Shown: positions 1,160 to 9,737, counted from the first letter of the stretch. The stretch: 10,947 nucleotides of DNA from an uncultured archaeon (GCA_964354495.1 CAYHAA010000034.1:1-10947); one strand, 5' to 3'. Notes: a model not told the origin generated them from the sequence alone. Numbers and translations: made by a program.

Positions 1160-1204
1160 GAAGGGAAGACATTCAGGTCTGAATATCTCCCGTGCTATGA
1201 CTGT
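1160..1204 (-). repeat. R1: degenerate copy of the ACAD 3' end (putative att-like remnant)
   Basis: Minus frame reads TVIAREIFRPECLPF vs ACAD IVMGREIFGPEYLPY. 28/39 nt identical ungapped (1163-1201 vs 9693-9731). Confidence 0.8.
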
Positions 1205-1404
1205 CTCTTGCCCAACAGGATATGTGCTTCTAAGGTATTGTCTTTCATAGGGGCATGCAAATGCGTAGCAGAATGTGTGAGCTGACGGCTCTATTAACAC
1301 TCTGACTTTTCCAACGTTCTCTCTCTATTTCGATTTCGACTGCATCAATCTTCAGAGCCTGATGACCAAAGCGCAAAACGACTGTCACTCCAACAACATT
1401 CGGA

Positions 1405-2667
1405 CTATTCCAGCGCTATCTGCTCATATTTGGATTCGATGTTTGGATATCGGAATGTGTCGGCCCGAATTTTAACTTCTCCCTCTTCTGTAATCTCAAG
1501 AATCTCGGATCCCTCATGGAGAAGGTTGTGAATAAAATAACTAGTCGTGATTTCTGCCCATTTTCTCAGTTCTTCAGGGTGGGTAACTCTCTTGGGTGCG
1601 GTTCTTGCGAGGCCGACCCAATCATACCACCTTTCTGTCGCTTCAAAATCCCCACCATGGCGATCCGTTGAAGGGTCCCACCTCACCCCACCATATATGA
1701 CCTGAGCTTTGATCCACAACCATTTACCAGCAGACTTTATTGTTATCTTGCCAACAGGAGGATAAAACTCCGCTCTTTCATAAGGTCTTTTTTCCCAATC
1801 ACTGTCTACTTCCGTCTTCAATTGATCTATTAAGAAGTCACTCATATTCTTTACATCGATCTCCGAAGTCTCGACTTGCGCCTGCTGGTAGTCTATGATT
1901 GTTCGAAGGGGATCCTCGGAATCGACAATTGCAATCTCGCAAATCATTCCATTTTGGTCTATTGCAACAAACTCAAACATCAATGTAAATCCTATCTTGC
2001 GGAGTTGCCAACTAAGAAACTCTACTATTAGTGGTTCGATTGCCTCTGCTGGTGATTCCGTTTTAGAACTGATTGTTGGAGAGCCCTCCTTCAAATCAAT
2101 AGAAAAACCATTGTGTCTAGAACCCATTTCCACACGATAACCGAGAAATCTAGGGAATAGCGCTTGGAACTCTCTTCCCAGACGTTCGTATTCACCTGAA
2201 AAGGTGAAATCTTCGTAATCAATCAGGGCCGCATTGGGATTGTCAATAATACTATTTGCGTCCGCAATTAAGGCAATCTTGAATTGGGCCAATAACGCGT
2301 CAGTTTCTGGTCCAATTAGAAGGGCTTTAAGTTCGTAATCATCAATTTGCTCGAAAAGATTGATTATTGATTTGATTAGTTGCGTCCATTTCTTTGTGTT
2401 GAAATTATCCTCTTCAGCTTTTTCTATATATTCACCAAGAACCTCCAATTTACTCTGTATCGATTTTAATGCGTTAAGATTCACTTGACTGCTTTTTCTA
2501 TCAGCAACAGGTAGTTTAGTTAAGTCGGCAATTATCTTTTTCAACAGCTTTCCTAGCCCGTTGAACGCCTCGTGTCTAGCCTGTTTCGCTTCATCCGGAT
2601 GGATTAATTCTGCACGAACTATGTAAGGCAGTTTTTTCTCATGCATACTCAATGGCATCTCATCCAA
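1405..2667 (-). CDS. Hypothetical protein, about 420 aa, no family recognised
   Basis: Long AT-rich ORF. The annotated start is TTG; ATGs at 2658 and 2646 are alternatives. The N-terminus looks helical and the C-terminal half alpha/beta with several Trp. Confidence 0.85.
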   Translation of the reverse strand: MDEMPLSMHEKKLPYIVRAELIHPDEAKQARHEAFNGLGKLLKKIIADLTKLPVADRKSSQVNLNALKSIQSKLEVLGEYIEKAEEDNFNTKKWTQLIKSIINLFEQIDDYELKALLIGPETDALLAQFKIALIADANSIIDNPNAALIDYEDFTFSGEYERLGREFQALFPRFLGYRVEMGSRHNGFSIDLKEGSPTISSKTESPAEAIEPLIVEFLSWQLRKIGFTLMFEFVAIDQNGMICEIAIVDSEDPLRTIIDYQQAQVETSEIDVKNMSDFLIDQLKTEVDSDWEKRPYERAEFYPPVGKITIKSAGKWLWIKAQVIYGGVRWDPSTDRHGGDFEATERWYDWVGLARTAPKRVTHPEELRKWAEITTSYFIHNLLHEGSEILEITEEGEVKIRADTFRYPNIESKYEQIALE

Positions 2668-2758
2668 TTGCGATAAATCTACTCAATGCTGTATTGTTCG
2701 ATACTTCTCTTCACTTGTCTTATAGGCTGTGATTACGACTATGTTTTTCTCTCGTTTT

Positions 2759-5700
2759 CTATGAGGTGGTGCTGTAGGTCATTCTCTTTCTTAGGACAAG
2801 CATCACAACGAGTAATCCAATGAGCCCTCCGGAACTCACGAGGATCATAACCATGATACTCACTGATTGGTCTGTGGTTGATGGTGAAGTAGTTGTTGAC
2901 GTAGTGGATGTGTTTCCACTTCCTGGATAGTCCTGTGCGTCTAGTGGATTGGTTCCAGCTATTGTCTCAGCGCCATCCAGATATGTGTCATTATCGCTAT
3001 CGTCGTCTGTCGGATCTGTGCCTATCTTGACCTCGTAGGCATCGTTCAAATTATCGCAGTCAGTGTCAATACAGAGAATATCGGTTCCATAGAAAATCTC
3101 ATCGAGGTCATCCAACCCATCATAGTCTGTGTCTCCTATCGTCACTCCCAACTGATTGAGAACAGCTCGAATCTCATTGATGTCACCTATTACTGATGCG
3201 TTCAGTGTCTGTAACCACGCTGTGTTCTGAGTTACCAGTGCGGCAACAAGATCTAACTTGGTTGCATTTCCATTCATCTGGTCTATAACACTTAGCAAAA
3301 GACTTGCATTTCCTGCCATGTAGGTGAACAGAGTCTGGATAGCTGTGTGATTACCATCGAGCCATTCAATAACCTGGCTGAGATCAACAGGCTCCATGGA
3401 ATTCACTTGGTCGATGACATTCAATAAGAGGGTTTCATTCCCTGCAGACCAAGTCAGCAGATTCTGTATTAGGGTGCTATTGCCATTCAATGCACTGACA
3501 GTCTGGAAGAGAAGTGTAGCATTTCCATCAAGTTGTGTAAAGAGAGTACCAATGGCAGTATGGTTTCCATCAAGCCATACGATTACCTGCTGAAGCAGTG
3601 TTGCATTATTGTCCAGTTGTTGCATGACTATTTGTAGAAGTGAAGCATTGCCTGCAGACCAAGCCAGCAGATTCTGTATTAGGGTGCTATTGTAGTCAAG
3701 ATTCTCATAGATAGTGTCGTACCACGCTTGTGGTATTGCTGGATATGACATTGGGTCCAAGGGATTTGATCCATAGAGGATCTCATATGCATCTAGGAAA
3801 TTGTCGTTATCAGAGTCAATTCTAAATGGATTGGTCCCATATATCATACTTTCAGTCCAGTCTGGAATAGAATCCATGTCAGTATCAAAAGAGAACACTG
3901 CCACATAGAGGTCATAGTCGCCATCAATCTGTGAATCCAATGCGAATTGTGTTGGGAAGTCAGTGGATGCTGTTGCACCTGTGATATAGATATAGCCATT
4001 CTTGACTTCAATACCAAATCCATAGTCTAGATCATTCCCACCAAAGTATGAACTGGAGATGAGGAATGCTCCATCACCTGACAGAATGGTCAACGCACAA
4101 TCAGGGTTGGCAAACGTTGAATCATATGCATACATCAAAGGAAAATCGTTAGATTCTGTATAGGAGAGAACATGTGCGTATGTGTTGTATATTGCGATAT
4201 CGAATGCCTGGTCATGTCCACTTCCTCCAATGAAGGTGCTGTAAATAAGGGATTTCTCATCTTCGGAGAGCTTTGCAACAAAGACATCCCAACCTCCGTT
4301 GTACACTCCGTCGTACGCATTAGCAGTTGGAAAATTGGATGACTGGGTGCATCCTACTAGGTAGATATGCCCGTTTGAAAGTGCAAGTCCAGTTACATAG
4401 TCATTTCCTGCACCACCAAGGAAAGAACTATAGATTAGCTGCTCACCAGCTATTGACACATTAGCAATGAAGCAATCTGACCCCCCGTTGTAGGTCGAAT
4501 CGTAAGCATTCACAACAGGGAAGTTCGAGGATTCTGTATAGCCAGCTACAATTGCATGGTGATTATTTACAGTGATTGCGTGTCCTCTGTCGAATAAGCT
4601 TCCTCCAAGATATGTGCTATATGAAATACCTGAACTATGGACACACGACACAAATGCATCTGCTCCCCCATTTATTGTAGTATTCATAGCCGTAATGGAG
4701 GTAGGATAGTCTGTAGAATAGGTAAAGCCAGTTATGTACACTAGTCCGGACCCTACTGCAATTGCTTCACTCATATCAAACCCAGAACCGCCTATATATG
4801 TGGAATAATGAAGCGATTGTCCATTCCAAGCCAGGTATCCCACAAAACAATCCCGATTTCCATTGTATGTCGGGTCATAAGCGCTCACATTGGGGAAGTT
4901 AGACGATTCAGTCCATCCTGTGAAATAGACCTCTCCATTGACCACTGACAATCCAGTCCCACTGTCAGCACCATCACCACCAATGAACGTACTGTAGATA
5001 ATTGACTGTCCATTAGCTGCTAGTTTCATAATGAAGCAGTCATCGTTTGTACCATATGTCGAGTTGTAAGCATTTACAACTGGGAAATCGAATGAAGACG
5101 TTTTTCCAGTCACATAGATAAATCCATTCTCGACCTTGATATCATAACCAAAATCATTGCCAGAACCTCCAAGTAATGTTGAGTACGCGAGAACGACAGG
5201 ATCAATCACTAATTCTCTTGAATGGTCATATTCGCCTATATTGAATCCAACAGTATCGAAAGACTCACAAGAGAAGGTGCAATCTATCTCTGGATTTCTT
5301 TCTTGAAATGCTTTCAATTCTGAATCAACTAATCGCTGGTCCCCTTGTTCAATCGTTATTTGATCAACAGCGAAGTTGATACGATCTATACCAACGTATC
5401 TCATTTTGATACAATTGGAATCTGTATCAGGCGATACGATGAATTCATACTTGAGATTGGACTCCTGTATTTTGTAGACTAGGTCAATGCCTAGGTAGAT
5501 CTCACTGTACCTAAGCACTGCACAGTCATTCAGACCAGTTTTCCATTGACTACTATCTGAGCCATAGAAGTAGTTTGTCACAGAACCAGTCGGTTGTTCG
5601 CCTTCTGGTATAACATGGTTACTACCAAGAAACTCAAGAGTGAACAGCTCATTATTGACTAGATAGTATACCACAGAGGCTCCGAAATAAGCTACAACAC

Positions 5701-9384: not shown

Positions 9385-9617
9385 TCCTATTCACCAATCA
9401 TTATCCGCAATATCACTGACTGTTGTCGATTGACCATTATCAGATTTGCTCTCATCAGCTAATCTGCTTTCCCATTGTTATCCTAAGGGCTCGATGTTGG
9501 TGGCTGAATTGAAGAGGAACACCTTGTTTCGAATTGGATGCGAGAATTATATCCACATCTCTTTTCGATAAGACAATAATGTCCAGAGTGCGGAAAGAAT
9601 CTATATGAGTATGAAGA
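9231..9617 (-). repeat. Block B: duplicate of 6202-6597
   Basis: About 80% identity by hand alignment. The offset is 3029 then 3020 across a 9-bp indel. Confidence 0.95.
9441..9466. promoter_or_regulatory. Conserved inverted repeat/hairpin in the DUF2283 leader (copy B)
   Basis: CAGATT-t-GCT-ctcatc-AGC-t-AATCTG; a T-A pair replaces the G-C pair of copy A. Confidence 0.55.
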
Positions 9618-9632
9618 ATAGAAAAAGGAGAT

Positions 9633-9656
9633 AAAAGGGGACATAGACCCCCTTTT
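9633..9656 (-). terminator. Terminator-like hairpin downstream of ACAD
   Basis: AAAAGGGG-8nt-CCCCTTTT, 12 nt after the ACAD stop, followed by T-rich sequence on the minus strand. Confidence 0.7.
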
Positions 9657-9668
9657 TTGATATTAAGA

Positions 9669-9737
9669 CTACATTTGCTTCTCTTGGCGATAAGGTAGGT
9701 ATTCAGGTCCGAAAATTTCCCTGCCCATGACGATGCG
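9669..9737 (-). repeat. R0: live ACAD 3' end, the reference copy of the repeat family (putative attachment site)
   Basis: Encodes RIVMGREIFGPEYLPYRQEKQM* and aligns without gaps to R1-R4. Confidence 0.85.

Follow-up and report, generated by a model that had tools for sequence, protein, structure and literature searches.

The 10,947-nucleotide (nt) stretch of DNA analyzed here (the window) is the entire contig C34 of a 3.3-Mb, 51-contig Thorarchaeota metagenome-assembled genome (MAG) that is 97.7% complete (G000, whose contigs are cited as C34, C8, C42, and so on). Near its right end lies, on the minus strand, a gene for an acyl-CoA dehydrogenase (ACAD; 9669-10910; Pfam Acyl-CoA_dh_N/M/1), and behind the 3′ end of this gene follows a row of gene modules delimited by diverged copies of that same end, a unit of ~110 nt that we call O. 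We conclude, with a probability of roughly 0.9, that the window covers the part nearest the gene of an array of mobile cassettes, all co-oriented and docked at the 3′ end of a Thorarchaeote ACAD gene, and that such arrays are lineage-wide and carry no recombinase.

The closest orthologues of the ACAD protein (78-94% amino acid (aa) identity) all come from Thorarchaeota MAGs, the next group being Anaerolineae at ~50-55%. Because its nearest relatives are exclusively Thorarchaeota, the sequence identifies the source organism as a Thorarchaeote, that is, an Asgard archaeon. Among known organisms, the Asgard archaea are the nearest relatives of eukaryotes.

The Repeat Unit and Its Copies

The profile of O comprises 6 nt, the 63 nt of the last 21 ACAD codons and stop, and a terminator hairpin of ~45 nt. 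Scanning the window with this profile returned five copies in the same direction as ACAD and nothing comparable on the opposite strand, with 100 shuffled windows as the null (maximum 13.5 bits). The gene's own end, R0 (9628-9734, minus strand as for all copies; 83.0 bits), consists of O at 9669-9731, preceded by ATC, plus a hairpin at 9628-9668 with an energy of -11.4 kcal/mol. Two further copies contain the full O and a hairpin directly after it, as in R0: R3 (7333-7434; 56.4 bits), with O at 7368-7430 and the stop codon in register, and R2 (6755-6863; 59.6 bits), with O at 6797-6859 and the stop codon lost. Two are left halves, namely R4 (8562-8603; 20.8 bits), which covers profile positions 2-43 and is cut off at the start of an alcohol dehydrogenase cassette, and R1 (1162-1273; 31.3 bits), which covers profile positions 3-46 at 1162-1205 and continues upstream with ACAD-like codons. 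The score of R4 is independent, since this copy was absent from the profile seed. An ungapped scan of both strands with the last 75 nt of ACAD gave 52/75 identities for R3 and 45/75 for R2 (200 shuffles: maximum 40/75, 99th percentile 38); R1 and R4 resemble this 75-nt end only over its first ~42 nt, at about 74% and 66%, respectively. The ACAD reading frame is kept in all copies, with R3 reading RIVQAREIFGPECLPYRYEKHT, R2 AILMARMIFGIDHSPHRQEKQM, and R4 IIMAQELFRPDYL.

A sequence-only reading of the window had proposed four extra copies of the ACAD 3′ end that lie in direct orientation and delimit separate modules. These copies are real, all of them scoring far above shuffled sequence; their common orientation and the modules between them are confirmed, and the positions proposed for them agree with ours to within 1-3 nt. 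The accompanying proposal that all four copies begin at about the same codon holds for R2, R3, and R4 and fails for R1. The former three share the start point ATC/GTCATGG (9734/9731 in R0), and no ACAD homology was detected upstream of it in any of them (p>0.6). In R1, similarity to ACAD extends in frame over ~24 additional upstream codons, interrupted by a gap of 7 codons, and ends at ~1273 (p=0.0005; none in the other frames); this copy is therefore a longer, older ACAD fragment whose boundary is unlike that of the others.

The source genome holds further O copies outside the window, four or five of them on C8, co-oriented and ~10 kb apart, and others on C42 (C8:87757-117920 and C42:5527-5575). 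These flank modules with a DUF2283 pair and with genes of ordinary appearance, such as those for a 2499-aa protein and for enzymes of sugar and cell-wall metabolism, and parts of the C8 and C42 modules recur in the arrays of G031 and G026.

Cassettes and Genes of the Window

Next to the ACAD gene lies cassette 1 (8604-9627, minus strand), in which a leader (9385-9617) is followed by genes for a small DUF2283 protein (9178-9384) and a PBECR3-like nuclease (8819-9178), as assigned by Pfam; together these encode a putative toxin-antitoxin pair. Cassette 2 (7435-8561) carries on the plus strand, opposite to the repeats, a gene for a Zn-dependent alcohol dehydrogenase (ADH; 7539-8569; Pfam ADH_N). 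This gene is frameshifted near 8147-8168, where tblastn with the intact homologue of locus L040 (343 aa) gives two frames, reflecting either a pseudogene or a sequencing error. Cassette 3 (6864-7332, minus strand) consists of a membrane-like open reading frame (ORF) of 142 aa (6867-7295) with three hydrophobic stretches and no assigned family, whose distant homologues (36% aa identity) sit inside the arrays of G040 and L150. Cassette 4 (1206-6754, minus strand; Pfam assignments) comprises a leader, a DUF2283 gene (6131-6355), a gene for a 1078-aa surface-type protein with DUF7948/SBBP/TSP3 matches (2759-5995), and a 420-aa ORF without a family (1405-2667). The gene for the 1078-aa protein contains internal repeats with a 189-nt period and has paralogues on C20, C22, C42, C4, and C3.

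The heads of cassettes 4 and 1 are related, their leader and DUF2283 regions being ~80% identical over ~400 nt (6192-6597 versus 9221-9617). The same head opens cassettes in other genomes, with differing partner genes in G002, G031, L136, and L146. Since one leader-DUF2283 head thus precedes different partners, the DUF2283-led cassettes form a family with a swappable second gene.

Beyond R1 lies a gene for an alpha/beta hydrolase (3-1091, minus strand; Pfam BD-FAE/Abhydrolase_3) that is truncated by the contig end. In a related metagenome contig (L139), two O copies enclose a gene that is 90% identical to it, and the hydrolase of the window is thus probably a fifth cassette rather than the outer flank of the array, which runs off the contig. 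For the same reason, we rejected R1 as the original, displaced gene end at the far edge of the array. The left contig end is without a partner, and the remainder of the hydrolase gene is absent from the assembly; a link from C34 to either C8 or C42 by way of this piece was considered and rejected, as the piece does not occur in the assembly. At the right end, 10893-10947 overlaps C35:1-55 exactly (55 nt), making C34 and C35 neighbors in the assembly graph. Searches of the window for tRNA genes, Rfam matches, and PADLOC defence matches found none. With its O copies diverged, two of them (R1 and R4) reduced to left halves, and its ADH gene frameshifted, the array of the window is an old and decaying example of its kind.

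Distribution among Thorarchaeota

Searching relatives with the repeat profile, as the sequence-only reading had recommended, revealed arrays behind the orthologous ACAD gene in many Thorarchaeota. At most Thorarchaeota loci with enough flanking sequence, between one and seven additional O copies follow the gene; all are co-oriented, and none lies on its upstream side. When the ACAD end of each locus was used as the query against that locus's own DNA, copies were found at 13 of the 18 Thorarchaeota loci whose downstream flank reaches 1 kb or more, versus 3 of 51 non-Thorarchaeota ACAD loci (396 kb), the three positives of the latter set consisting of a single weak match each. These three are the Chloroflexota loci L043, L045, and L069 (E<0.01).

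Within a sample of the family, 24 of 41 genomes contain an O match and 21 contain at least two copies, with up to 13 copies per genome and 11 of 16 genera represented. One array, on contig G003:C26, spans 34 kb and comprises at least 15 copies; the same genome contains a second array, on G003:C51, without an ACAD gene. Scanning metagenomes with the conserved 27-nt core of O returned 56 contigs with 148 profile matches. Orientation is never mixed within a locus. Of 179 O matches away from contig ends, 126 (70%) begin at profile positions 1-7, and ~80% extend through the hairpin. The spacers between copies are small (n=231, drawn from genome and metagenome sets that overlap partly; median 1158 bp, interquartile range (IQR) 683-1850, 78% below 2 kb). 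Empty sites also exist, with ~10 kb downstream of ACAD devoid of any O copy at L011, L020, and L025.

Cassettes as Mobile Units and Their Cargo

The gene content behind ACAD differs almost completely between species; the upstream side keeps partial synteny. A comparison of ACAD-downstream synteny, which had been proposed as a check, thus finds a hypervariable region and three species with empty sites. Many cassettes are found again in other genomes; their orientation relative to O is always the same, and homology starts in the left O and stops in the right O, with unrelated flanks. The ADH cassette of the window recurs at 80-86% nt identity at other array positions in L040 (cassette 3), L004 (cassette 6, where it is fused to another 0.5 kb), and G040. 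Between two other genomes, cassettes 3, 4, 9, 10, and 11 of G003 correspond to cassettes 9, 2, 8, 7, and 10 of G029, so that cassette order has been shuffled. The ADH cassettes of the window and L040 are 82.9% identical, whereas their ACAD genes are 72.0% identical (over 704 nt); this excess in cassette identity suggests that the ADH cassette was exchanged after the species split.

Variation is also visible in a related population (Logan contigs, run X1). In one contig, the ACAD gene is followed as far as 9751, and 6236 nt of other DNA then separate it from the cassette 1 leader, which resumes at 9619; another contains cassette 1 followed, from exactly 8562 (R4), by 785 nt of other DNA. The loose ends in this run (9665, 9679, 6783, and 6816) all fall within or next to O copies.

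The array cargo comprises 195 ORFs of at least 80 aa with 209 Pfam families, none of which is common and none of which, among those listed, is a recombinase. Included are flavodoxins, FMN reductases, NosD/beta-helix surface proteins, GNAT acetyltransferases, and ADHs, together with transporters, regulators, and PIN and AbiEii toxins; the strands are represented at 119 versus 77. The reading of the locus as a hotspot for gene-end cassettes is supported by the same cassettes appearing at different array positions in different genomes; gene order is not fixed, the similarity between copies is well above that of shuffled sequence, and among the copies of the window only R1 shows ACAD homology upstream of the common boundary.

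Boundaries and Exchange Points

Alignment of 64 non-genic copies with the ACAD consensus places the 5′ boundary sharply: identity is at background up to position -9, reaches 0.73-0.80 at ATC, and exceeds 0.9 from GTCATGG on. One copy in L018 reaches ~100 nt upstream of this boundary. The points of exchange lie elsewhere. Among clean pairs of shared cassettes with different neighbors, shared sequence sets in ~20 nt before the end of the left O and extends through hairpin and cargo into the left part and core of the next O; the first ~40 nt of the left O and the hairpin after the next O are not shared. The breakpoints thus fall between about +43 and +66 of O, in its last ~25 nt, where conservation is highest (around CCGTACAGGCAAGAGAAACAGATGTAG). 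The original insertions could have produced this pattern, and so, equally well, could later deletions or exchanges between O copies.

Non-genic copies keep codon periodicity, with conservation of 0.87 at the first two codon positions and 0.63 at the third, from which it follows that most of their divergence arose while they were coding ends. The periodicity is consistent with copies that once were gene ends or that exchange sequence with them. At L040, L070, L014, and L020, the gene end is lineage-specific (RQKGQF-type) and unlike the cassette copies, which are of the RQEKQM type; the gene's own end has therefore not been replaced at these loci. The sequence-only reading had drawn on islands that bring a replacement end and displace the old one. 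That picture survives in part, in that the codon periodicity marks the copies as once having been coding ends; the breakpoints, which do not fall at the 5′ boundary, and the species that retain a lineage-specific gene end speak against the remainder.

Copies of O are ~73% identical between genomes. Variable sites within O are almost unlinked (r2 at most 0.19, a low value that probably reflects saturation), with no block or compensatory pattern. Beyond the terminator hairpin, the only part that folds reproducibly, no conserved fold was found in O.

Search for a Recombinase

No match to tyrosine recombinases (PF00589, PF16795), large serine recombinases (PF07508), Cas1, or Y1 transposases was found in G000, and since no tyrosine recombinase of any kind was matched, no XerA-type enzyme is detectable there either. 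A PF00589 search was positive in 16 of 41 family genomes; 10 of the 21 array-bearing genomes lack this family, among them a single-contig genome. The sole contig with both PF00589 and O is G003:C51, on which 19 kb separate the integrase from the closest O copy. Comparing six-frame ORFs of 103 O-bearing loci (~700 kb) with Thorarchaeota integrases and two resolvases returned nothing besides this integrase. Likewise, no recombinase was found among the genes upstream of ACAD, which are not conserved, no exact-pattern match to the O core in viral contigs, and no circular or integrase-bearing contig among the 56 metagenome contigs with O. The expectation that the modules would be free of recombinases is thus borne out, a single integrase gene, at a distance of 19 kb from any repeat, being all that ~700 kb of array DNA contains.

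G000 does have two small resolvase genes (PF00239 search), on contigs other than that of the array. The genome also contains 16 TnpB (Cas12f-like) genes, one of which lies 2 kb from a small serine resolvase gene (C24:10937-13781), and this pairing looks IS607-like.

At least four further arrays of co-oriented dispersed repeats were found in G000, at C30:1-9900, C10:2000-32350, C10:101270-109770, and C3:84800-95540, with four to eight or more copies each and units of 50-360 nt. These units, whose sequences are unrelated to O, look like gene 3′ ends. None of the four arrays has a conserved 8-mer core in common with O.

Mechanism and Alternative Explanations

Each cassette has at its distal end an O that copies the last 21 codons, the stop, and the hairpin, and usually contains one or two genes on either strand. 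As to how cassettes move, we give even odds to host homologous recombination, with O acting as a portable homology anchor to a conserved gene and no dedicated integrase involved. Cassettes would be gained, lost, and reshuffled by recombination between O copies, with the exchange falling in the ~25 conserved nt around CCGTACAGGCAAGAGAAACAGATGTAG that end the unit. A circle with one O would be looped out between two neighboring copies, and this circle, or a linear O-cargo-O piece from a relative, could re-enter or replace at any O, including the end of the gene itself, leaving the gene undamaged. Host recombination is favored by four observations: no dedicated enzyme was found either in cis or elsewhere in the genome, one genome uses several anchors that are unrelated to each other, the repeats have no shared core or structure, and the exchange falls in the longest conserved stretch. 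It explains the data at least as well as a recombinase acting in trans.

Several points weigh against this account. Neither excision circles in the Logan contigs of relatives, which contained strain variants only, nor excision junctions or de novo events in the raw reads of four runs, which held only the ACAD genes of relatives, were seen. The common 5′ boundary (~70% of copies) and the diversity of cargo are easier to explain with a dedicated cassette-making enzyme; if homologous recombination is at work, copies must have inherited their boundary, and existing cassettes must acquire new cargo in some other way. An identity of ~73% between the O copies of different genomes offers little homology for efficient recombination, and breakpoints in the most conserved stretch equally fit a fixed crossover site. 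Finally, all genomes are MAGs, so that a helper plasmid or virus with a recombinase could be unbinned.

A site-specific recombinase acting in trans on the same cassette array, encoded by a host gene elsewhere or by an unbinned helper plasmid or virus, is the main rival explanation, which we regard as distinctly below even odds. Such an enzyme would recognize O (arm, core, and hairpin) and exchange strands at one set position within the conserved 3′ core, as in integrons or cis-mobilizable elements (CIMEs). It would account for the sharp 5′ boundary shared by ~70% of 179 copies in many genera, for the confinement of breakpoints to the conserved last ~25 nt, and for very diverse single-gene cargo, as in integrons; the patchy occurrence of tyrosine recombinases in the family (16 of 41 genomes) and the ease with which mobile elements are missed by MAGs would fit as well. 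However, no candidate was found at ACAD, in the arrays, or on the 103 O-bearing loci, apart from the one 19 kb off, and none in G000 or in the array-bearing relative assembled as a single contig; no viral contig with O was found either. The four or more unrelated arrays of G000, which have no motif in common, would each need an enzyme of its own, and O lacks an attC-like conserved fold or covariation.

An improbable alternative is a fossil of tandem accretion, in which integrase-bearing islands or proviruses integrated serially at the ACAD 3′ end and later lost their integrase modules by deletion. Accretion of this type is known at tRNA and other gene ends, as in tycheposon islands with scattered partial tRNAs (10.1101/2020.12.28.424599). 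The visible decay of the array in the window and the different, longer boundary of R1 are in keeping with it, but no integrase or fragment of one was found across about 230 spacers, which are tightly small (IQR 683-1850 bp) rather than showing a broad spectrum of deletions, and small cassettes that are intact in several genomes, with O at both sides, behave as units.

That the copies are decayed or duplicated ACAD paralogues, or chance resemblances, unrelated to mobility is refuted for the array as a whole, for although R1 is ACAD-like for ~24 codons upstream and one L018 copy for ~100 nt, R2, R3, R4, and ~70% of all copies start at one nucleotide without upstream homology, scores lie far above those of shuffled sequence, arrays reach 15 or more copies with variable cargo and cassettes common to several genomes, and non-Thorarchaeota ACAD loci lack such copies.

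Comparison with Known Systems

In tandem accretion and CIMEs (the ICESt1/ICESt3 family; SCCmec composites at rlmH/orfX), direct repeats of a gene 3′ end separate co-oriented modules, some of them without a recombinase and so reliant on functions provided in trans, and the gene stays intact. The array described here is alike in its co-oriented repeats resembling the 3′ end of the target gene, its intact ACAD gene, and its recombinase-less modules. It differs in its target, an Asgard ACAD gene, in the 63 coding nt plus hairpin that are repeated, and in its size of at least 15 modules of ~1 kb. Moreover, accretion involves a cognate integrase in an element at the site, whereas no module with a recombinase occurs in ~700 kb here. 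SCCmec in particular uses the ccr large serine recombinases and has short direct repeats at the rlmH 3′ end, whereas PF07508 has no match in G000, whose two small resolvase genes lie elsewhere. Additive flexible genomic islands of Alteromonas and other marine bacteria are reportedly strings of small, strain-variable cassettes at a fixed spot, often beside a tRNA gene; unlike the present arrays, they are bacterial, usually tRNA-anchored, often have integrases nearby, and are said to be less regular in their repeat-bounded units.

Integrons have been reported in archaeal MAGs (PMC9668308). The ACAD arrays share with integrons a fixed platform, small and mostly single-gene cassettes that lack a recombinase and are diverse in function, a site at the cassette end, and variable cassette order. 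In contrast to integrons, where IntI is encoded at the platform, no such enzyme was found near ACAD or in G000; attC is an imperfect palindrome conserved in structure, whereas O is a sequence copy of a gene end without covariation; and the cargo lies on both strands (119 vs 77) rather than in promoterless cassettes read from a common promoter (Pc). Tycheposon islands of Prochlorococcus grow through successive integrations at the proximal site, which leave incomplete target copies scattered along the island (10.1101/2020.12.28.424599). These likewise combine an island beside a conserved gene with partial target copies and adaptive, variable cargo, but they encode a tyrosine or large serine recombinase and a replication module and target tRNA or tmRNA genes, whereas the array analyzed here has neither module and targets a protein-coding gene. 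The Asgard mobile elements covered by the papers searched (PMC8813620, PMC11529989) comprise integrase-bearing integrated elements, viruses, plasmids, and aloposons, and repeat-bounded cassette arrays are absent from these papers.

Implications

New here are the ACAD anchor, the breadth of the arrays across the Thorarchaeota family, and the anatomy of their boundaries and breakpoints. More tentatively, and at somewhat less than even odds, the window may represent a general mode of integrase-independent gene capture in Thorarchaeota, and perhaps in other sediment archaea, in which a copy of the 3′ end and terminator of a conserved host gene would serve cassettes as a portable docking sequence, with several anchors per genome (the ACAD end and other gene ends), and in which movement would depend on host recombination alone or on a recombinase of an unrecognized family.

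For practical purposes, matches to the O profile point to regions of Thorarchaeota MAGs that are hypervariable and where assemblies are likely to break. Should a new enzyme be responsible, O itself (~110 nt) would be its substrate and would offer a means of tracking it down. In either case, the locus is a concrete, sequence-defined platform for gene gain in Asgard archaea, present in about half of the sampled genomes of the family and without a recognizable integrase. If host recombination suffices, the end of a conserved gene would provide a simple and general strategy by which selfish or useful cassettes enter related genomes, and the same principle could explain similar integrase-free arrays elsewhere.

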